64,000 nucleotides of DNA, taken from contig SUUK01000002.1 in the NCBI GenBank assembly GCA_015062535.1, positions 250,493 through 314,492 of the forward strand. Reading direction: 5' to 3'. How positions within the stretch are numbered: position 1 is the first letter of the stretch; each line of letters opens with the position of its first letter. Under the pieces are notes generated by a model. That model was not told where the DNA came from. It made no database searches and saw only the letters and a list, made by a program, of their open reading frames with translations. The stretch comes from Alphaproteobacteria bacterium (lineage in GTDB: Bacteria > Pseudomonadota > Alphaproteobacteria > RF32 > CAG-239). Positions 1 to 50,482 of the stretch are shown piece after piece. The translations under genes and the position numbers were made by a program.

Positions 1-435
1 GCTAATGAGGTTTAACTTAAGATCCCCAAAAAAAGGATTAAGCCATTTTTCATATAAGCCAATTTCTCTCTCAACAGTTGATTTTTTATTCTTTCTTTTA
101 ATATGAGGTTTGTAATAATTTTCAAATAAATCTGAAAAAGTTATTTCTTTAAGTTGTTTTTGTTTTAAGGCTTCCTCATTAGCTATTTTTTCCTGTTGGC
201 GTTGTTCTCTTTGTTCTTTATAAGAAAAGGCTTTACCAGTCTCAATATCTTTAATAAGGGCTGAACGAATGTTGTAAACTTCTTCGGCTGTATATCCTTC
301 TGACTTCCAACCTATAGTTTCTTCACGTCTTACACCATTAACAGTATAACGAATAGAATATGATATATCTTTTTTATTTAAAATGTGTCCGTAAGTAACT
401 TTTTCTCTGACACCTGGAAATTTATTTTTTCTCAT
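1..435 (-). CDS. Tyrosine recombinase/phage integrase, N-terminal part (runs off the window start; not in the ORF track)
   Basis: Manual translation from ATG at 435 is open to base 1: MRKNKFPGVREKVTYGHILNKKDISYSIRYTVNGVRREETIGWKSEGYTAEEVYNIR...ITFSDLFENYYKPHIKRKNKKSTVEREIGLYEKWLNPFFGDLKLNLIS. This resembles an integrase arm-binding domain followed by a core-binding domain. RBS AGAAAGGA upstream; lies beside a tRNA fragment. Catalytic domain is outside the window. Confidence 0.8.
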   Translation of the reverse strand, partial: MRKNKFPGVREKVTYGHILNKKDISYSIRYTVNGVRREETIGWKSEGYTAEEVYNIRSALIKDIETGKAFSYKEQREQRQQEKIANEEALKQKQLKEITFSDLFENYYKPHIKRKNKKSTVEREIGLYEKWLNPFFGDLKLNLIS

Positions 436-594
436 TAAAAATCCTTTCTTGTTTTTCAATTTATCCTCAGTATATCCCCTTTGGATTGCAAAGAAAATGT
501 CGCTACGTTACACGTAGATACGATTTGGAGAAAAAAATTTTAAAAATAAGTGATTGTTTTTGTTTGTTTTGTGTATCAGTGTGTGTAAAATTTG

Positions 595-643
595 CGGTTT
601 GTGGTACCGGTTGTCGTCGGTTCGAGCCCGATCGTTCGCCCCA
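595..643 (+). pseudogene. 3' half of tRNA-His(GTG), attachment-site copy
   Basis: CGGT-TTGTGGT-ACCG anticodon arm (GTG), variable loop TTGTC, T-arm GTCGG-TTCGAGC-CCGAT, acceptor strand CGTTCGC, discriminator C, CCA. No D-arm or 5' acceptor strand upstream. Confidence 0.85.
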
Positions 644-1445
644 GATAATGCCCTAGCTTGTGCTGGGGCTTTTTTTTGTGCGAACAATCGGGCTCTTGCA
701 AGTTCTCGCCCGTCTTGTTTTGTAGGGCTCGCTTTTTAATAAAAGCTTGCCAACTTCACTTCGGGCAAGTCATTGTAACATTTGCATTGACGCCGTTTCC
801 GGCTAATGCAAATTAACAAAGCCTGATAGTTTATGGCAAAAACAATTCACTGGATTGTTTTTGCTCATAAGCTCGTTCGCCCCAGATAATGCCCTAGCTT
901 AATGTTGGGGCTTTTTTTGTGCGAACAATCGGGTTCTTGCAAGTTCTCGCCCGTCTTGTTTCGTAGGGCTCGCTTTTTAATAAAAGCTTGCCAACTTCAC
1001 TTCGGGCAAGTCATTGTAACATTTGCATTGACGCCGTTTCCGGCTAATGCAAATTAACAAAGTCTGATAGTTTATGGTAAAAACAATTCACTGGATTGTT
1101 TTTGCTCATAAGCTCGTTCGCCCCAGATAATGCCCTAGCTTAATGTTGGGGCTTTTTTTGTGCGAACAATCGGGCTCTTGCAAGTTCTCGCCCGTCTTGT
1201 TTCGTAGGGCTCGCTTTTTAATAAAAGCTTGCCAACTTCACTTCGGGCAAGTCATTGTAACATTTGCATTGACGCCGTTTCCGGCTAATGCAAATTAACA
1301 AAGTCTGATAGTTTATGGCAAAAACAATTCACTGGATTGTTTTTGCTCATAAGCTCGTTCGCCCCAGATAATGCCCTAGCTTGTGCTGGGGCTTTTTTTG
1401 TGCGAACAATCGGGCTCTTGCAAGTTCTCGCCCGTCTTGTTTCGT
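633..1445 (+). repeat. tRNA-linked tandem repeat, 241-bp period, 3 full copies plus one partial
   Basis: CGTTCGCCCCAGATAATGCCCTAGC starts at 633, 874, 1115 and 1356. Copies are near-identical; each holds a terminator-like hairpin with a T-run plus several further hairpins. Confidence 0.97.
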
Positions 1446-1535
1446 TTATCTGTTTTTAATATATCGGTTTTATAGGTTGACATAAGGGGGAGAAGATAAT
1501 AGTCTGTTTTTAGGATTTTTTTATTTTGGACTATT

Positions 1536-2075
1536 TTGATGACTTGGACTTTTTTTATTCGTAAATTAAGAAGCTTTGCATTTGGCTCGACAGATGCTTT
1601 GCTTTTTGATGATAGATTTATTATTGATGATATATATTTTAAGCGCCGTTTAAAGTTTCGCAATATTGATAAATATGAATTATCAAAAATGAAAGTTAAA
1701 GATATTAAAAGGTGTACAGGAGATGGTAATCACTCTTTGTATGATGTTGAGGCTTATAAATATCTTGATGGTGCATATAAAGAATATGATGAATATTGTG
1801 AATTTCACAGAGCACATGGTCATGAAGAAATGGATGTTGCGCATTATGATGCGTTGATAAAAAGTATTGAAGAAAATGGGTATGACAATAAACACGTTAT
1901 AATTGTTGATTATAATGATGTTGTTAAAGATGGACAACATAGGTCTTGTTGTTTGCTCCATAATTTTGGTCCCGATTTTGAAGTTCCGGTGCTAAGGGTT
2001 AAGCTTGCTAAAAGAACTTTAATTAATAAACTTATGAGATTTTTCTATAAATATTTTGTGGGGTTTGTAGATTAA
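1536..2075 (+). CDS. Hypothetical protein with ParB/sulfiredoxin-like motif, possibly 5'-truncated
   Basis: LIKSIEENGY...IIVD...VKDGQHR resembles the ParB N-terminal signature; no clear RBS; in-frame stop at 1500. Confidence 0.5.
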   Translation: MMTWTFFIRKLRSFAFGSTDALLFDDRFIIDDIYFKRRLKFRNIDKYELSKMKVKDIKRCTGDGNHSLYDVEAYKYLDGAYKEYDEYCEFHRAHGHEEMDVAHYDALIKSIEENGYDNKHVIIVDYNDVVKDGQHRSCCLLHNFGPDFEVPVLRVKLAKRTLINKLMRFFYKYFVGFVD

Positions 2076-2100
2076 TAGGTTGGAAAAGGTTATATATTAA

Positions 2101-2128
2101 AACCGCCGAGACTTTTATCTCGGCGGTT
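2101..2128. terminator. Hairpin between convergent genes, probable terminator
   Basis: AACCGCCGAGA/TCTCGGCGGTT perfect stem. Confidence 0.65.
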
Positions 2129-2132
2129 GAGG

Positions 2133-2876
2133 TTATTTAAGTATTGAGCGAAGAGAATATTCTACTTCGGTCATACTTGTTTTGGTTCGCATTCCATGTG
2201 TGTCGTTAGAAATTATCTTGATAATAGTTTCTGGTGAAGAAATTTTATCAGATAAATTTAAGACATCTGTTACTTTAACAGCTGGATCATTTCTTCCAAC
2301 AAACAGGTGTACAGGGCAAGCAAGGGATAAGCTTTCTTGTTTGCGAATTTCTTCAGTTGATGAAATAAATTTTTCTGTTAGTTTGAATGGAATACGTTTG
2401 TCTTGTAAATAAAAAACAGTATATCCCTGTTTTTCTAGGTCTTTTTGTTGGTCTTGGCTCAATTTTTGTCGCCAATCAATGTCTGCTGCGCTTAGGGTTA
2501 TTACACCTTTAATGCGTTCCTTAAAATAGGGCGCTGTAAATAAGCTTATAATACCACCTAGGCAAGAGCCGACGAGAATAACGTTGCCAGTTATGACATT
2601 TGTCAGCAGGTATTTTAATTGGTTTATCCAAATAAATAAATCTGCATTGTCATATTGTTCTAGATTGTTAGAATGACCAGCGAGTTCGTACCAGCAAAAA
2701 GAAGAGTTTAAGCGAGTTACAATCTCGCAAACCATTTTAGGTTTACGATGTTGATTGCGCGCTTGTTGACCGTGAACGTAGATAACCGTTAAATCGGTTG
2801 GGGTAACATCAGGAGTTGTGATTTGTACTTCAAAATCAAACCCTTGAAAAACTTCAGTTGACCTAAAAGTTTTCAT
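2133..2876 (-). CDS. Alpha/beta hydrolase fold protein
   Basis: YVHG oxyanion motif, GSCLG nucleophile elbow, GRND Asp, DTHG His. Confidence 0.8.
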   Translation of the reverse strand: MKTFRSTEVFQGFDFEVQITTPDVTPTDLTVIYVHGQQARNQHRKPKMVCEIVTRLNSSFCWYELAGHSNNLEQYDNADLFIWINQLKYLLTNVITGNVILVGSCLGGIISLFTAPYFKERIKGVITLSAADIDWRQKLSQDQQKDLEKQGYTVFYLQDKRIPFKLTEKFISSTEEIRKQESLSLACPVHLFVGRNDPAVKVTDVLNLSDKISSPETIIKIISNDTHGMRTKTSMTEVEYSLRSILK

Positions 2877-3141
2877 AATTGTAAAGTTTATGATAATATA
2901 TTAAGCAAGGTTAGTATAGAGTTATTTATTTTAAAATCAATAATATAATTATTGTTTTTTTTATGAGGTAAATAGAGTTTTTTTGTATTTAAATATATAA
3001 TAAAGAGTCAAAATAGGGGATTTTTGAGTTAAAAAAGAGCTAAAAATGATTTTTTTGTCAATATGATTCAACGTGAATCTCTATAAGGGTTTTTAAAAGA
3101 TATTTTTTTTAATTTTTTTTCGTTTTTTGTGCATTTTTTGC

Positions 3142-3304
3142 TTGCATTATTAAAATTTAAATGTTACAAAGGCCAAGCAACAAAAAAGTTAAGGAAGTGT
3201 TAACTTTCTTGCGAATCAAATATAACCCATAATGCAGACGAATGTTGCTAAAGTTTGCAGTAATTTTTTAGATGGCAAATTCCATTGTGGAGTTTTTTGC
3301 CATT
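3142..3304 (+). promoter_or_regulatory. Putative S10 operon promoter and structured 5' leader
   Basis: TTGCAT-17-TACAAA with TG extension; three hairpins at 3177-3212, 3233-3259 and 3271-3304. Confidence 0.45.
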
Positions 3305-3329
3305 TAGTTATAGGAAAAGTGTTAAAATG

Positions 3330-3638
3330 ATGGATACACAAAATATCAGAATCCGCCTTAAGGCTTTTGATCATCGTTTATTAGACTTGTCTACTAAAGA
3401 GATTGTTCATACAGCTAAAAGAACCGGAGCTAATGTTAGAGGACCAATTCCTCTTCCAACTAAAATTGAGAAGTTTACGATTAACCGTTCTCCTCACGTT
3501 GATAAAAAATCTCGTGAACAGTTCGAAATCAGAACTCACAAAAGACTTCTTGATATTGTAGATCCTACACCACAAACAGTTGATGCGTTGATGAAATTAG
3601 ACCTTGCAGCTGGTGTGAATGTAGAAATTAAGTTATAA
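3330..3638 (+). CDS. rpsJ: 30S ribosomal protein S10
   Basis: [16 protein letters not shown]...[14 protein letters not shown]; start taken at the MDTQN ATG. Confidence 0.98.
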
Positions 3639-3695
3639 TTTTTAATGTTGGTTTTTGAAAGATAAAATCAACCTATTGAAAAAGGAAAAATAATA

Positions 3696-4418
3696 ATGCG
3701 TACTGGTTTAATCGCAAAAAAACTTGGGATGACTAGAATTTTTGAAGCTGATGGGACACATGTTCCTGTTACAGTTTTGGCTGTTGAAGGCTTAAAAGTT
3801 GTTAATGTCAGAACAAATGATAAAGATGGTTATACAGCTGTTCAATTAGGAACAGGCGCTATTAAAGCGAAAAATGTATCTAAACCAATGAAGGGATACT
3901 TCACCAAGGCTAACGTTGAGCCAAAGAAGAAAATTGCTGAATTTAGAGTAAGCGAAGATTGTCTTCTTTCTGTTGGTGATGAATTGTCTGCAGAACACTT
4001 TGTTGCAGGTCAATTTGTAGATGTTTGTGCAACTTCTATCGGTAAAGGTTTTGCCGGTGTTATGAAACGTCACAACTTTGCAGGTTTGGAAGCAACACAC
4101 GGTGTGTCTATTTCTCACCGTTCACATGGTTCTACAGGACAAAGACAAGATCCAGGTAAAGTATTCAAAGGTAAAAAGATGGCTGGACATATGGGTGATG
4201 AACGTGTTACTGTTCAAAACTTAAAAGTTGTAGCTGTTGATGGAAATCGTGGTTTGATTATGGTTAAAGGTGGCGTTCCTGGTGCTGAAAATGCATGGGT
4301 TAGAGTTACTGATGCTATTAAGAAAACTCAAGATGTTAAATTACCAATGCCTGCAGGTCTTAAAAAGGTTGATGAACCTGTTGCAGTTATAGCTGAAGAA
4401 GCAGCTGATAATGCATAG
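3696..4418 (+). CDS. rplC: 50S ribosomal protein L3
   Basis: [28 protein letters not shown]. Confidence 0.98.
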
Positions 4419-4437
4419 AGATTAAGGATTTTTGAAA

Positions 4438-5058
4438 ATGAAACAGGACATCTTAAATTTGAATAATGAAAACGTTGGTAGCATTGAACTTAATGATGCT
4501 ATTTTCGGCTTAGAAGTTCGTGCTGACGTTTTGCACCGCGTTGTAAATTGGCAATTGGCTATGCGTCAATGCGGTAACCACCAAACTAAAGGTCGTTCAG
4601 ACGTTGCTTTGACACCTGCAAAACCATTCAAACAAAAAGGTAGTGGTAATGCTCGTCAAGGTAGCCGTAAGGGTACTCAATTTAGAAAAGGTGGAATTGT
4701 TTTTGGTCCAGTTGTAAGAGATCACTCTCATGACTTGACTAAGAAATTTAGAAAATTAGGTCTAAAAATTGCTCTTTCAGCTAAAGCTAAAGAGGGTAAT
4801 CTTGTTATCGTAGATGAAGCAAAGCTTTCAAATCCAAAGACAAAAGATTTGATTCAAAAATTAAATGCTTGTGGTTTGAATAACTGCTTATTTATCGATG
4901 GTAAGGAAGTAGACATGAACTTTGCATTAGCTAGCCGTAACATTGTTGGTGTAGATGTATTACCTACAATTGGTGCTAATGTGTACGATATTTTGAAAAA
5001 AGAGAAGTTGGTATTAACTAAAGAAGCTGTTACATGCTTGGAGGAAAGATTACAATGA
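4438..5058 (+). CDS. rplD: 50S ribosomal protein L4
   Basis: [22 protein letters not shown]; operon position. Confidence 0.97.
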
Positions 5059-5372
5059 AAAAATCAGAAAAAACAAACAATGTAACTGCAGCTATGTATG
5101 ATACATTACTTCGTCCGGTAATTACAGAAAAGTCTATGACATCTTCTGAAAGTGGTAAAGTTGTATTTACTGTACCTTTATCAGCTACTAAAGAAGAAAT
5201 TAAAGCAGCTATTGAAGCTATCTTTAATGTAAAAGTTAAGAAGGTAAATACCGTTAAACAAGCTGGTAAGGTAAAACGCTTTAGAGGTTATGAGGGCGTT
5301 CGCTCTGATTACAAAAAGGCTGTTATTACTCTTGCCGATGGTCAAAATATTGATGTTACAGCAGGAATTTAG
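5055..5372 (+). CDS. rplW: 50S ribosomal protein L23
   Basis: RPVITEKS...YKKAVITL; ATG overlaps the rplD stop. Confidence 0.97.
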
Positions 5373-5374
5373 TC

Positions 5375-6211
5375 ATGGCTTTGAGAACATTTAAGCCCGC
5401 TACTCCAGGTCTTCGTCAACTAGTTATTGTTGATAGAAGTGAGCTTTATAAGGGCAAACCTGAGAAGAGTTTGACTGTTGGTCTTACAAAAACAGGTGGG
5501 CGTGATAATTTCGGACACGTTACAAGTCGTAGAATCGGTGGCGGTCACAAACGTAAATACCGTGTAATTGACTTCAAACGTAATAAATTTGATTGTGAAG
5601 CAACTGTTGAGAGAATCGAATATGATCCAAACCGCACATCTTTCATTGCTTTAATTAGCTATGAAGATGGCGAGAAGGCTTATATCTTGGCTCCTCAAAG
5701 ATTAAAAGCTGGTGATAAAGTTATCTCTTCTGAGAAAGCTGATATTAAACCAGGTAACGCAATGCCATTAAAGAGCATGCCAGTTGGTACTATCGTTCAC
5801 AACGTTGAGTTAAGATCTGGCAAAGGCGGACAATTAGTTCGTTCTGCTGGTTGTTATGCTCAAGTTGTTGGTAAAGATGGTGGTTATGCGCAACTTAAAC
5901 TTTCTTCTGGCGAATTAAGAATCGTTAGAGAAGAATGTTTAGCTACTGTTGGTGCTGTATCTAACCCTGATAACCAAAACGTTTCTTTGGGTAAAGCAGG
6001 TCGTGCTAGATGGTTAGGTGCTCGTCCAGTATCTCGTGGTGTTGCAATGAACCCAGTTGATCACCCACATGGTGGTGGTGAAGGCCGTACTTCAGGTGGT
6101 CGTCATCCAGTTACTCCTTGGGGTAAACCAACTAAGGGTGCAAAAACTCGTTCTAACAAGAAGACAGATCGCTTTATTATGAGATCTCGTCATGAAAACA
6201 AGAAGAAATAA
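5375..6211 (+). CDS. rplB: 50S ribosomal protein L2
   Basis: [23 protein letters not shown]. Confidence 0.99.
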
Positions 6212-46288: not shown

Positions 46289-49200
46289 TTAAAATTTATA
46301 TTGCATTCCGGCATCTATTGTTATTCCATCAATAGCGCCAAATTCTTTTTCAATATTTCCATATAAGGTTATATTTTCATAATTATATGTTGCATTTAGG
46401 GATAAAACACCTCGATTAGAGTTTTGTTTTTTGATAATATCAAAGTTGTTATTCATTGCAACTATTGAACCTTTTAAGGCTTTATCAGGTTCTAAAAACT
46501 CAACATAATATATTCCGCCAATTTTTAATTTTAATGATTTATCTTTATCAAAAGAAAACTCTTTGGTTAAATATGAGCCAAGTCCTAGTTCTAGTGATGT
46601 GGCATTGTTCGATTTTATGTTAAGTGCATTTTCTTTATTTTTTTCTGAAATATCTTCTTGATAGTAGTTAATTAGGTTTAGTTCTGCAAGTGGCTCAAAT
46701 TTTAGGGAGTTTGCAAGGTTTAGTGTATAACGAACTTCGTTATTTAATCCAAATTGATATTCGTTATAATCAGCAGAATTTTCACCGGTTAGTGTTTTTC
46801 TATCATATGAGTTGTCATTGTATCCGGCATGTAGTTTTGAATACCACTTTAAGCCGTTATTAAAGTCATAACCAAATGGCAACCACAAGCCAAATTGATT
46901 GGATTTGCGTTTAGAATGGTCATCATAATCTGTTTTTAATTGACTGATTGATGCACCCAAACCATAAGTTATGCCAGAAGTTGTTTTATTTTTTAATAAA
47001 CCATAAGCGCTATGTGCGGTTCCTTTACTTTCTTCTAATGATTTATCAGAATCGTTTGAAATATCTATGAACTTATAACCTGCAACATAGTTTTTGTTTG
47101 GTTCATTAAATAGGATATCACTAAACTGGCGATTTAGGTTTTGGTGAACAATTTGGTTTTCTCTTCTAAATGATGGGAGAATGTTGTTTCCAGTTAAAGT
47201 ATCTATTTTTTTGTTTAAGCTAGATGAAGTTGAAGCTGTTTTTAAGTTATTGTAAAGTGCTAGATTTTTCTTTTCTTCGTAGTTTTGTTCTAAGAAGTTT
47301 GCAACACTTTTATTTGTTATTAGGTCATTAAAGTTTTGACGAGTTAAAACAACATCATGATTTTGGCTATCTTTTGAAACCAAAGATGCATTAAACATTG
47401 CTGATTTTGACTTTAAGTTTAGCTCAGATAAGTCGTTTGCTTTAAGTGAGTTAGAAAGAGTATGGTTATTTTCAAAATTGTCCATGAGAGGGGAATTTGT
47501 GACAGATAAATCTCCTTTTATCGTGTCGCCAAAGAATTTACCAGTTGCTCCAAGTATTACCTCACCTTTACCCATATCATTAAAGTTTGTAACAGATTGA
47601 GGAGTGCGAGAGCCATAGATATCTATCATATCACCTGTTTCGGATTCTTTTTCTTCTCCATTAAATGTGATTGTACCTGTATTTTCTAGGGTAGCATCAT
47701 CTTCTAAGTATATACCTTTTCCAGAGCTTGCATTTGTTATGGTTATTGTTCCGCTATTTTTTACACTAGCACCATTTTCGGCATATATACCATAGGCTGT
47801 TCCGCCAATTTCTGATGATGGAGTAAGTGTTTCGTTTGTTTTTTCGTCTTTATATTCTTGGCGATAGATATTTATTTGACCGCTATTTTCTATTTTTGAA
47901 AATGCTTCTCCGTAAATACCAACAGCTGTACCATTTCCTAAGTTGTTTATGTTTATAATTCCGCTATTGGTGATTTTGTTAAATCTTCCACCACGAAGTC
48001 CTGTTGTTATGCCATCTCCAGTATTTATTAGGTTTATAGTAGATTGTACACCGGTTTTGCCTAAGGTTTCGTGAGCATAACCTTCTTCGGTGATGTTAGC
48101 AATAACTCCATTGGCATCTTCTTCTGGCATATACATACCATATACATCACCATTGCCTTGATTTATAATACTGATTGTACCAACGGCTTTTCCTGTGGGA
48201 TGTCCTTCTTCAGTTTTTCCGCCATAGTGCAGTCCATTCCATAATTGTTGACCTCCGTACATACCATAAACATTTCCGGTGCCTTTATTTCTTATTGTTA
48301 TATTACCCTCTACGTAATCTCCGCCACCTGATGCAGCATTGATGGCAAACCATTGTTGAGCATTGCTTTCAACATCCTTGATATCTTTTTGAATATTTAT
48401 TCCATAGATATTTCCGTTACCTTTAGAATCTATGTTAATATTAGCAATAGCTTCACGTCCTAAGTAGAATTGGTGAGATGTTGCATTCATTGCTGCCATA
48501 TAGCCACCAATACCATATATATCGCCATATGATTCGATATTTATGTCACCATAGGATTTTCCACCGGTTATGGCGATAGCATTGTAGGCTCTGTCATCTC
48601 CAAAAATACCATAGGTTTTACCAGTTCCTTTATTTGTTATATTTATTTGACCATGAGCAATACCACCATCTGAACCTTCTGAATTTACAGCTTCCCATGA
48701 ATTTTGTGCATCTAAAATTTTTGAATATATACCATATACTTCACCATTTTTTTGGTGAGTAATATTTATAATGCCTGTTGCTTCAGAGATGGGGTTTATT
48801 TCATCTTCATAGCGTTTTCCGTCAACAAGAGCATTTGTTACATGACGTTCGCCGTACATACCTATGGTTTTTCCGTTTCCGGAATTGTTTAAATTAATTT
48901 CTTGATAGTCATCAGGGTGTACATATACAGAATATAGGTTATATACGTCTTGGTCTGTTGAATATACACCATAGAGGTCTTCGTCACCAGTGTTTTCTTT
49001 TTCTGTATTACCAACGGCTACACAAATGTTGTTTGATTGCTCAAATCCCTCTGGGCATTCAATTATTAGTATGCAGACATTATCTTGTAAGAAATAGCCG
49101 TCATTACATTCTGTACATACATTTGCTGTTGGGCTGTATGCAATACAATTTGGAACATGAGAATGTGGTAAGCATTCTTTTAGTAGAGTTTCTCCTGATA

Positions 49201-50482
49201 AGCAGGTATTTCCTGTTTCGTATTGATTTTCGTTACATAAAGTTAAATAGTTTGAACCACAATCTGTTGGCTGGCATTCATCATCTTTGGTTATTGTATA
49301 ACCTTCATCACAAGTATTTAATAAGCACTCATTACCAACTAGAGCATAATTTTCATTACATTCAGAACAAGTATTAGATGTAGGGCTATATGTTTTGCAG
49401 TTTGGAACATCTGTATGGGGTAAACATTCTTTTAGTAAAGTTTCACCAGATAAACAAGTATTTCCTGTTTCATATTGGTTTTCGTTGCAAGAACTTAAAT
49501 AATTTTCACCACAAATGGTTATTTCGCAAGTATTTCCAGTTAATGTATAACCATCATTACATATTGCGCATGCATCTTCTAATGGACTATATGTTTTGCA
49601 GTTTGGAACATCTGTATGGGGTAAACATTCTTTTAATAAATTATTTCCAGATAAACAAGTATTTCCTGTTTCGTATTGATTTTCGTTGCAGGAACTTAAA
49701 TAATTTTCACCACAAACGTTTGGTTCACAAGTGCTTCCAACTAATGTAAATCCCTCATCACAGATGATTGGTTTACACTCATTTCCGACAAGCTCTTCAC
49801 CCTCTGGGCAAACGATTGGTTTACATTCGTTTCCAACAAGCTCTTCACCTTCAGGGCAAACGATTGGTTTACACTCGTTTCCAACAAGCTCTTCACCATC
49901 TGGGCAGATGATTGGTTTACAAATTCCATCTACACGTTCTTGTCCTTCTGGGCAATCTATTTGTTCGCATTTGCCATTTACAAGTTCTTCTCCGTCAGGG
50001 CAAGTAATTGGATTTTTATTATTAGAATCATTAGATGATGAGCCTCCACCACCTCCGCCTCCGCCGGCAAGGGCTGCGATACCTGCAACTGCTAAACCTG
50101 AAGCAATATAAATCCCCGTATTGCTGTCATCGGAAGACTTATAAATACTTTCTTTTTTAGTGGTAGATTTTTGAGTTGTTAGTTTTTGGTTTTTAAATTT
50201 TTTTGTGCAAGGGTGGTTTGTTTTTGCACCAAGAGATTTTATTTTACGATATGCAAAAATGTCATTTTTTGATATAGCAATGCATAGTGCAGAATTGCCT
50301 TCTTTATCAACCGAATCGAGATTATAACCACGATATAAATATTTATGTATGGTTTGGATATCACCTGTTCTTGCTTTGTGATATACAAATTCTGCAAATG
50401 ATATAGCTTTTGCGTTTTCTATATTTAAGAAAAAGCTAAATAAAATAAGGCTTATTGATAAAATATATTTTTTAATAATCAT
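46289..50482 (-). CDS. Large autotransporter/adhesin with ankyrin-like N-terminus and Cys-rich repeats
   Basis: Signal peptide; GYNLDSVDKEGNSALCIAI; IASGLAVAGIAALAGGGGGGGG; Cys repeats; YGIY passenger repeats; barrel end DAGMQYKF. Confidence 0.82.
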   Translation of the reverse strand: MIIKKYILSISLILFSFFLNIENAKAISFAEFVYHKARTGDIQTIHKYLYRGYNLDSVDKEGNSALCIAISKNDIFAYRKIKSLGAKTNHPCTKKFKNQKLTTQKSTTKKESIYKSSDDSNTGIYIASGLAVAGIAALAGGGGGGGGSSSNDSNNKNPITCPDGEELVNGKCEQIDCPEGQERVDGICKPIICPDGEELVGNECKPIVCPEGEELVGNECKPIVCPEGEELVGNECKPIICDEGFTLVGSTCEPNVCGENYLSSCNENQYETGNTCLSGNNLLKECLPHTDVPNCKTYSPLEDACAICNDGYTLTGNTCEITICGENYLSSCNENQYETGNTCLSGETLLKECLPHTDVPNCKTYSPTSNTCSECNENYALVGNECLLNTCDEGYTITKDDECQPTDCGSNYLTLCNENQYETGNTCLSGETLLKECLPHSHVPNCIAYSPTANVCTECNDGYFLQDNVCILIIECPEGFEQSNNICVAVGNTEKENTGDEDLYGVYSTDQDVYNLYSVYVHPDDYQEINLNNSGNGKTIGMYGERHVTNALVDGKRYEDEINPISEATGIINITHQKNGEVYGIYSKILDAQNSWEAVNSEGSDGGIAHGQINITNKGTGKTYGIFGDDRAYNAIAITGGKSYGDINIESYGDIYGIGGYMAAMNATSHQFYLGREAIANINIDSKGNGNIYGINIQKDIKDVESNAQQWFAINAASGGGDYVEGNITIRNKGTGNVYGMYGGQQLWNGLHYGGKTEEGHPTGKAVGTISIINQGNGDVYGMYMPEEDANGVIANITEEGYAHETLGKTGVQSTINLINTGDGITTGLRGGRFNKITNSGIININNLGNGTAVGIYGEAFSKIENSGQINIYRQEYKDEKTNETLTPSSEIGGTAYGIYAENGASVKNSGTITITNASSGKGIYLEDDATLENTGTITFNGEEKESETGDMIDIYGSRTPQSVTNFNDMGKGEVILGATGKFFGDTIKGDLSVTNSPLMDNFENNHTLSNSLKANDLSELNLKSKSAMFNASLVSKDSQNHDVVLTRQNFNDLITNKSVANFLEQNYEEKKNLALYNNLKTASTSSSLNKKIDTLTGNNILPSFRRENQIVHQNLNRQFSDILFNEPNKNYVAGYKFIDISNDSDKSLEESKGTAHSAYGLLKNKTTSGITYGLGASISQLKTDYDDHSKRKSNQFGLWLPFGYDFNNGLKWYSKLHAGYNDNSYDRKTLTGENSADYNEYQFGLNNEVRYTLNLANSLKFEPLAELNLINYYQEDISEKNKENALNIKSNNATSLELGLGSYLTKEFSFDKDKSLKLKIGGIYYVEFLEPDKALKGSIVAMNNNFDIIKKQNSNRGVLSLNATYNYENITLYGNIEKEFGAIDGITIDAGMQYKF
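49061..50002 (-). repeat. Intragenic Cys-rich repeats: six 48-bp units (49715-50002) and three ~201-bp units (49061-49714)
   Basis: CPEGEELVGNECKPIV-type unit x6; 67-aa CGENYLSSCNENQYETGNTCLSG...C unit x3, conserved at DNA level. Confidence 0.93.

Follow-up and report, generated by a model that had tools for sequence, protein, structure and literature searches.

The closest described counterparts of the sequence analysed here are the tRNA-linked repeats (TLRs) of Escherichia coli, tandem repeats that lie behind tRNA genes and end in a copy of the gene upstream. Our subject is a tandem array behind a tRNA-His 3' end near the start of a 64,000-nucleotide stretch of DNA (the window; positions 250,493 to 314,492 of contig SUUK01000002.1, assembly GCA_015062535.1) from a gut alphaproteobacterium of the lineage RF32, CAG-239. 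According to one account (PMC8144298), E. coli TLRs were first described in 1978, and their function is not established; ten loci hold 22 of them, one to five each. Over 18-19 bp their 3' ends match exactly the 3' end of the gene upstream, be it for a tRNA or an rRNA. The account also describes the three rRNA-linked members RrA, RrB and RrF, which are found downstream of 5S rRNA between the terminators T1 and T2, are co-transcribed by terminator read-through and are processed, and for these it proposes the repeated end as a signal for RNase E; it does not discuss where TLRs come from. The repeat rttR lies downstream of tyrT/tyrV, and for the tyrT-rttR region one preprint reports raised mobilome coverage without evidence of circles.

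The array in the window resembles the E. coli repeats in several respects. It lies directly downstream of the original tRNA-His 3' end, its units end in the 3' end of the upstream tRNA (a copy of 12 nt here, as against 18-19 bp), and its 3.4 tandem copies fall within the one to five found per locus in E. coli. The resemblance extends to the interior of the units. In the tyrV region of E. coli K-12 we found an array of 178 bp x 3.1 with four matches to the Rfam family RtT (RF00391; 133-137 bits), whose units run from GGGGAAGGAT, an inverted tRNA-Tyr segment, through AAGGTTCGA, a direct copy of the T-arm start, and the body to AATCCTTCCCCCACCACCA. The same order of inverted tRNA segment, direct T-arm start, body and tRNA 3' end is seen in the window. 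In the Rfam consensus of RtT the inverted and direct tRNA parts pair into a closing stem, which leaves a 9-nt tail ending in CCACCA. There are also clear differences: every unit in the window carries a strong intrinsic terminator, although the rRNA-linked E. coli members likewise sit between two terminators (PMC8144298); the body is another element, of ~160 nt, that also occurs away from tRNAs and in reverse; and the host is a small-genome gut alphaproteobacterium, not an enterobacterium.

Repeat units at the 3' end of tRNA-His

The array consists of tRNA-linked tandem units at the tRNA-His 3' end, each made up of the tRNA end, a terminator, inverted and direct copies of the T-arm and the ~160-nt element (Table 1). 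Tandem Repeats Finder (TRF) gave a period of 241 nt, 3.4 copies and 97% matches. The full units are identical to one another at 230, 232 and 239 of 241 positions in pairwise comparison, and each is followed by TCGTTCGCCCCA, the last 12 nt of tRNA-His. The terminator hairpins of the units (650-669, 891-911, 1132-1152 and 1373-1392) have 8 pairs, 5-6 of them G-C, and each runs into 7-8 T residues. The copy of the T-arm start pairs with the inverted copy into a short hairpin; it is degenerate in the window, and the relatives at loci L008, L009 and L027 carry AGGTTCGAGCCCG in its place. A search of positions 400-1700 against Rfam at E <= 10 returned, besides the tRNA fragment described below, only sub-threshold matches at chance level, mostly to terminators (NsiR1, SorY and others).

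Table 1. Coordinates of the array, its parts, the adjoining island and the loci with a second body type; positions are those of the window unless a genome and contig are given.
Feature	Position	Strand	Basis
Tandem array of tRNA-linked repeat units	632-1445	+	TRF; find_repeats family D1 (three full units)
Array units	full 632-872, 873-1113, 1114-1354; partial 1355-1445	+	
Copy of the last 12 nt of tRNA-His, TCGTTCGCCCCA (acceptor 3' strand, C73, CCA)	632-643; again 873-884, 1114-1125, 1355-1366	+	sequence, unit starts
Intrinsic-terminator-like hairpin and T-run of tRNA-His, in every unit	650-677	+	terminator scan
Inverted, slightly diverged copy of tRNA-His acceptor 3' strand and T-arm, GCGAACAATCGGGCTC, relative to 624-639	680-695; again 921-936, 1162-1177, 1402-1417	+	inverted repeat I1
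Direct but degenerate copy of the T-arm start: AAGTTCTCGCCCG (relatives: AGGTTCGAGCCCG)	701-713	+	sequence
Structured element of ~160 nt ('family-1')	712-873; again 953-1114, 1194-1355	+	covariance-model matches, covariation
Displaced 3' part of tRNA-His(GTG), anticodon stem to CCA; attR-side direct repeat of the island	595-643	+	identity to intact gene
5' part of integrase gene, right end of the island, outside the repeat; reading frame runs off the window	1-459	-	open reading frame list
Loci with the second body type, L046-L051 (Ser-tga, Val-tac, Trp, Arg-acg, Met, Lys-ctt)	G000:C2:98966-99384, C11:138064-138447, C10:228390-228576, C14:236870-237060, C14:325270-325460, C14:100717-101400		

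In this genome (G000; other G numbers denote genomes of relatives and L numbers denote loci) the array follows only a displaced part of tRNA-His. The genome has a single tRNA-His(GTG) gene, 7.3 kb upstream (G000:C10:243745-243820), and positions 595-643 repeat its last 49 nt without a difference. ARAGORN found no tRNA gene in positions 1-6000, and within 400-1700 the Rfam tRNA model matched only a fragment (579-640; 16 bits against a cut-off of 29). A 7.3-kb island (L054, G000:C10:243821-251086; positions 1-594 of the window and sequence upstream of it) separates the two tRNA-His copies, and the 49-nt direct repeat flanks it. The island carries genes for an integrase, a replication protein (Prim-Pol/DUF3987), a DEDDh exonuclease and a PD-(D/E)XK nuclease; the full open reading frame (ORF) of the integrase (L054:6168-7352, minus strand) matches Pfam Phage_integrase (1.4e-33) and Phage_int_SAM_3. 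A contig from metagenome run X7 lacks 7315 bases and runs straight from one tRNA-His copy into the other, the joint being ambiguous over 52 bases. The island thus represents an insertion polymorphism, the array stood originally behind an intact tRNA-His, and it is because of the integrated island that it now follows a mere fragment. An intact tRNA-His is found directly upstream of homologous units in G004, G020, G104 (3.5 units), G115 and G201. In X7, a different stretch of 402 bases replaces 756 bases of the array; gaps in the metagenome contig cover over the array do not count as absence.

The island also provides a standard against which integrase attachment (att) repeats can be compared with the array. 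Both show a tRNA 3' end duplicated as a direct repeat behind an intact tRNA, tandem build-up at one tRNA is common ground, and the 49-nt repeat around the island is a real case at the same tRNA-His. The 241-bp units differ in holding no recombinase ORF, which the island does have, and in that their repeat runs through the terminator into the inverted tRNA copy, with ends that vary by locus. Neither the inverted tRNA copy nor the ~160-nt element is present at the island ends, and on this ground the array was rejected as a plain att scar. In G014 the tRNA-His is opposite in orientation to a remnant of a repeat unit (L055, G014:C25; 13868-13943 and 15728-15949), with a 420-aa ORF between them, which points to an inversion there. 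We also looked in G014 for a larger element whose end would be the right part of the unit, and discarded it: this neighbouring ORF is no recombinase and has only a weak pentapeptide match.

The hexamer GCGAAC that stands behind the terminator opens a 16-nt segment (680-695) which is an inverted copy of 624-639, with 15 of 16 positions matching, and falls in a 34-nt inverted repeat (I1) around the terminator, with arms 624-657 and 662-695. The segment is specific to the neighbouring tRNA: its score as an inverted copy is 27, and the best of 40 non-cognate tRNA tails reaches 17. In the relative G013 (L019), such an inverted segment lies behind tRNA-His and is followed by just the first ~75 nt of the element, with no full unit. 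GCGAAC is complementary to the GTTCGC at the end of the unit because both strands derive from the tRNA-His 3' end; the complementarity is thus non-random and tRNA-derived on both strands.

A sequence-only reading of the window had taken this complementarity as the acceptor stem of a possible tRNA-His mimic, an RNA of ~205 nt per unit with a 6-bp stem and C73-CCA that would be handled by RNase P, histidyl-tRNA synthetase or other tRNA enzymes. The positions on which it was built are exact (GCGAAC 680-685, GTTCGC 875-880, C-CCA 881-884), and the geometry does recur in units 2 and 3 (921-926 with 1116-1125, and 1162-1167 with 1357-1366); for the fourth GCGAAC (1402-1407) no partner follows, as the array stops at 1445. 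The stem itself depends on where the RNA is cut. For an RNA cut at 680-884, the minimum free energy (MFE) fold of -82.5 kcal/mol (z = -8.9; 0 of 200 shuffled sequences fold as well) includes the 6-bp closing stem with a CCCA tail, analogous to the closing stem and CCA tail of the Rfam RtT model. In RNA 873-1125, which includes the upstream tRNA-end copy and the terminator, GCGAAC pairs with the upstream GTTCGC instead and the downstream GTTCGC is left free. Furthermore, at 11 of 12 tRNA-linked loci the genuine tRNA end is a better pairing partner for the inverted segment than the end of its own unit. In the window the two duplexes amount to -28.6 and -15.3 kcal/mol, respectively, and own-end duplexes, with a mean of -12.0 kcal/mol, are no better than non-cognate ones (-10.5 +/- 3.6; n = 120).

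Other features expected of a tRNA mimic are likewise missing. Neither ARAGORN nor Rfam recognises a tRNA in the unit, a T-loop is absent, and G680 is preceded by T, which gives U at position -1; the identity rule for histidine tRNAs is a G-1 opposite C73. The last two points had been raised as caveats by the sequence-only reading itself. A 5' end at G680 would also require a cut or a start right behind the T-run of a terminator. The hairpin with the CACTGG loop (836-864), which had been placed directly 5' of the acceptor strand and likened to a T-arm, is separated from that strand by ten bases (865-874), has the A-run, stem and T-run of a terminator-like structure, and is kept in copies without a neighbouring tRNA. 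In addition, the Phe unit of a relative lacks the complement of the acceptor strand. Other parts of the earlier proposal fared better. The 5' segment does change with the neighbouring tRNA (Phe, GGGGATCGAACC; Lys; Ala, AAGGAGGATCGAAC; Val; Ser), the idea of RNAs bounded by tRNA-end signals has a precedent in the closing stem and CCA tail of RtT, although not in the form of a tRNA-His mimic, and the second option offered, tRNA-derived ends tied to recombination at the tRNA end, comes close to the observed layout.

A family-wide element and a layout shared by many tRNA genes

The ~160-nt element contains the conserved motifs CTTGYTNCGTARGG and AACTNCRCTTCGGNCAAG and a long hairpin with a GTAAC/CTAAC internal loop, and it ends in the terminator-like hairpin already described, which in some copies (G046) is a plain strong terminator. 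Sequence 5' of its conserved 5' motif varies between copies. The three copies of the window score 151-154 bits with the covariance model (G000:C10:251204-251365, 251445-251606 and 251686-251847). RNAalifold predicted 26 pairs from 23 copies, 20 of them with compensatory changes. In 44 matches from 27 loci, an alignment that was fitted to the model and has about 5 of its 44 rows from loci used to build it, 92.7% of cells are paired (70.8% after shuffling), 22 of the 26 pairs change on both sides, and the covariation score is 0.568 against 0.172, with 0 of 500 shuffles reaching it and slid controls remaining at or below 0.092. The covarying pairs form three separate hairpins with conserved loops. 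G.T pairs number 52 and A.C pairs 10, and from this excess the fold belongs to the strand that has tRNA sense in the array of the window.

The element is a family-wide multi-copy element, usually found in tRNA-derived palindromic modules beside tRNAs and also elsewhere, in either orientation. The covariance model matches 133 of 151 genomes and all 23 genera of the family. An order-level sample contained it in 103 of 119 other genomes of the family and in 0 of 1 genome of the sole other family sampled; at class level it occurred in 3 of 149 other families, one match being weak, and in one of these genomes (G219) it lies within the same tRNA-derived repeat architecture. Copies number up to 24 or more per genome, are intergenic and are linked to contig breaks. 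A tRNA is present at 23 of the 27 sampled loci, and 20 of 44 copies (14 loci) are followed by a copy of the upstream tRNA 3' end, namely that of His, Ala-ggc, Ala-cgc or Ser-tga. BLAST and nhmmer located the element beside His, Phe and Lys in relatives; reversed copies stand beside Met and Pro and beside Lys-ctt in the window's own genome, and further copies occur at places without a tRNA.

Repetitive extragenic palindromic sequences and bacterial interspersed mosaic elements (REP/BIME), which are short palindromic intergenic repeats, and MITEs (small transposable elements with inverted repeats), which are miniature mobile elements, offer a comparison. Like them, the element is short, structured, multi-copy and intergenic, occurs in both orientations and breaks contigs. 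It differs from both in its three covarying hairpins, its strand-specific G.T excess and its strong bias towards tRNA flanks. Terminal inverted repeats and a clear target duplication, as in MITEs, were not found at L034. At this locus (G047:C62, ~1492-1665) a local duplication has one copy filled with the element and one empty; the insertion lies between CAGCC and GCCC and, in this single pair, shows at most a 3-bp ambiguous duplication and only a subterminal inverted match of 7-8 nt. The window's own genome gave no matches to RVT_1, Y1_Tnp, TnpB-type TNB or IS110 DEDD. Genes for Y1 were present in just G043 and G024 of 5 genomes checked, neither beside element copies nor in the genome richest in copies, and six tyrosine recombinases that were found had no link to repeat units. 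An array of another kind was observed at L084 (G196:C3:1-734), where five element copies stand head to tail with a period of ~153 and without tRNA-end copies between them; a strong terminator hairpin closes off each copy, and tRNA-Leu(cag) is the gene on which the array converges.

Units with the layout of the window are found in the same genome behind at least 8 other tRNA genes, among them Ser-tga and Val-tac (2 units each), Trp, Arg-acg, Met, Lys-ctt (composite, 2 units or more) and Lys-ttt, and in relatives behind Phe, Lys, Ala-ggc, Ala-cgc and Ser-tga. The shared order is a terminator, the inverted 3' end of the unit's own tRNA, a short hairpin, a direct copy of the start of the T-stem and T-loop, the body, and the rest of the tRNA to CCA. 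When tRNA 3' ends are scored for an inverted copy of their own tail, 10 of 42 reach 16 or more and the remainder 14 or less. The tRNA-end copy measures 16 nt at Phe and Lys in relatives, compared with 12 nt in the window.

Most of the other tRNA-linked units in the genome carry a second body type, unlike the element of the window. In 9 of 10 BLAST matches this body lies within ~570 nt downstream of a tRNA and in the same orientation as the tRNA. Its left flank is the cognate T-stem followed by TTCGA (Ser, GGGGTTCGA; Val, GGGAGTTCGA; Met, GTAGGTTCGA), and the tRNA resumes at its right flank; since the flanks match the cognate tRNA on both sides, the body interrupts a direct partial tRNA copy near the T-loop. 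A long target-site duplication between the direct and inverted T-loops fits Val, L008, L037 and L089 but not Ser-tga or Trp. One simple tandem duplication was rejected, as the tRNA-linked arrays examined finish in a partial unit and the L084 array has no tRNA-end copies.

Further observations concern the second body type and its surroundings. Its motifs include ACTACAAGCGAAAGGCG and TATGAGCGCCAGTG, and at Lys-ctt it is fused to the reversed copy of the window's element. It has a 13-letter motif in common with the E. coli tyrV repeats, with one letter different; overall similarity between the two is not significant. Behind tRNA-Ser(gga) lies an array with a period of 129 x 3.8, effectively ~258 x 1.9 (L052, G000:C10:219666-220146), which consists of partial tRNA-Ser copies from the anticodon arm to CCA, each with a terminator (two variants alternate) and no body between them.

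Origin of the arrays and competing explanations

The reading that we favour, and consider reasonably probable as a whole, is that of a TLR-type array that arose by insertion of an element, expanded by recombination and may be transcribed into read-through RNAs. The element would have landed in a duplicated tRNA 3' segment and so created the first unit. The resulting direct repeats of 60-90 nt, composed of the tRNA end, the terminator and the inverted copy, could then have undergone unequal homologous recombination and taken the array from one unit to 3.4. Array length varies among relatives, which together with the 402-for-756-base replacement in X7 fits expansion of this kind. If the E. coli TLRs are a guide, the units may be transcribed in genomes free of the island when the tRNA terminator is read through, and the repeated tRNA end and terminator may act as signals for 3'-end processing or termination that release putative discrete small RNAs. 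In the genome at hand the array is probably silent or only weakly read, because the island cuts it off from the tRNA-His promoter. Such RNAs would resemble the small RNAs derived from tRNA and rRNA trailers, such as 3'ETS-leuZ, in lying 3' of a tRNA and in needing the tRNA promoter and RNase processing; as described in PMC8144298, the 3'ETS-leuZ type precedes the terminator and is single-copy, whereas the units of the window follow the terminator and are repeated, with tRNA-end copies.

Several results weigh against this reading. A strong terminator heads each unit, the array lies 7.3 kb from the tRNA-His promoter in this genome, and no promoter-like site was found within the array in a scan of positions 400-1700, which returned 3 sites, all at 1609-1663, against 2.6 in shuffled sequence. 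The dependence of the covariation alignment on its model, mentioned above, belongs here as well. Element copies distant from tRNAs and reversed copies suggest that the DNA moves irrespective of any role as RNA. Loci differ in where the terminal direct repeat has its right end, which fits neither a precise recombinase nor one simple duplication. Finally, the link to E. coli has limits. The RtT model (RF00391, gathering score 45 bits) had no match at E <= 10 in positions 400-1700 of the window or at the Ser-tga and Val-tac loci (L046 and L047), nor at E <= 0.1 on eight tRNA loci, and membership in the RtT family was rejected accordingly. Deep homology between the second body type and the E. coli repeats was not supported either: the nhmmer match (E = 0.22) is non-significant and confined to a TGAGCGCCAG-type motif. 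What the array shares with E. coli TLRs is thus its architecture, and homology is not established; judged by architecture as read from sequence, the array is the same kind of structure as the E. coli TLRs without being a member of the RtT family.

An explanation in terms of DNA alone, which we hold to be unlikely, would make the units either scars left by elements with integration sites at tRNA 3' ends or miniature derivatives of such elements, each bringing a replacement end and terminator, the hairpins being recombination or binding sites. Direct repeats formed by tRNA 3' ends are the usual mark of integrases, and a real integrase island with its 49-nt repeat occupies the same tRNA-His; no unit, however, has a recombinase gene, the direct repeats of the units reach 45-60 nt past the tRNA with ends that vary by locus, and the island ends have neither inverted copy nor element. 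At Lys-ttt, L073 and L074 a different terminator follows the second tRNA-end copy, as would be expected if the first had arrived with an element, and the dispersal of the element in both orientations, at contig ends and in the filled and empty pair of L034 also speaks for mobile DNA. Against this stand the lack of reverse transcriptase, Y1 transposase, TnpB-type and IS110-type matches in the window's own genome, the restriction of Y1 genes to 2 of the 5 genomes checked, and the surplus of G.T pairs (52, with 10 A.C pairs), which fits the fold of a single strand better than a duplex binding site.

There is little to recommend the view that each unit is a small-RNA gene in its own right, equipped with a promoter and a terminator, and that these genes were amplified as an array with the tRNA parts as passengers. 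The structured, conserved core does end in a terminator-like hairpin, and L084 offers a head-to-tail array of five copies at a period of ~153 with no tRNA copies; yet the units contain no promoter-like site, the sequence upstream of the conserved 5' motif differs among copies, and the element is strongly tied to tRNA flanks, a tRNA being present at 23 of 27 sampled loci. Least probable of all is the tRNA-His mimic, whose closing stem in the isolated unit, counterpart in RtT and tRNA-specific 5' segment are outweighed by the preference for the upstream partner and the missing tRNA features set out above.

We also advance, only tentatively, a wider proposal: TLRs may extend beyond enterobacteria as a general class of mobile elements, structured as RNA or DNA, for which tRNA 3' ends are the place of settlement and which use or create an inverted and direct duplication of the T-arm and acceptor, and the ~160-nt element may be a previously undescribed RNA family. 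The body would then interrupt a duplicated T-arm, and several hundred copies of the element would exist in 151 genomes of one gut bacterial family, where independent insertions, empty sites and arrays would suffice to work out how TLRs form and what role their RNA plays. With unrelated bodies and in a distant lineage, the same architecture recurs hundreds of times and at many tRNAs, which suggests a general mechanism at tRNA 3' ends and not an accident at one locus. The family supplies comparative material that E. coli lacks, namely many tRNA targets, covariation, arrays that vary in length, and a polymorphism within the population whereby an array and its tRNA are parted by an integrase island. 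In practical terms, such arrays can mislead annotation, as they resemble tRNA fragments, pseudo att sites and small-RNA candidates, and can break short-read assemblies.

Other repeats and genes in the genome

A few features of the genome lie outside the tRNA-linked layout. A 1397-aa ORF of the window (46289-50482, minus strand) had no NCBIfam match at E <= 1e-5. A tandem repeat of 96 bp x 3.7 (G000:C2:19549-19905) overlaps the 5' side of tRNA-Arg(cct), and is thus upstream and not downstream of its tRNA. ARAGORN identified a permuted, two-piece transfer-messenger RNA with the tag ANDNFAPVAVAA on the same contig (G000:C2:50144-50465), and this two-piece form points to an alphaproteobacterial host. 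Tandem repeats with a period of 99 are numerous on contigs C13, C15, C3, C2, C14 and C10 of G000, where they account for 36 of 54 long-period clusters, and are probably 33-residue repeats within large ORFs.

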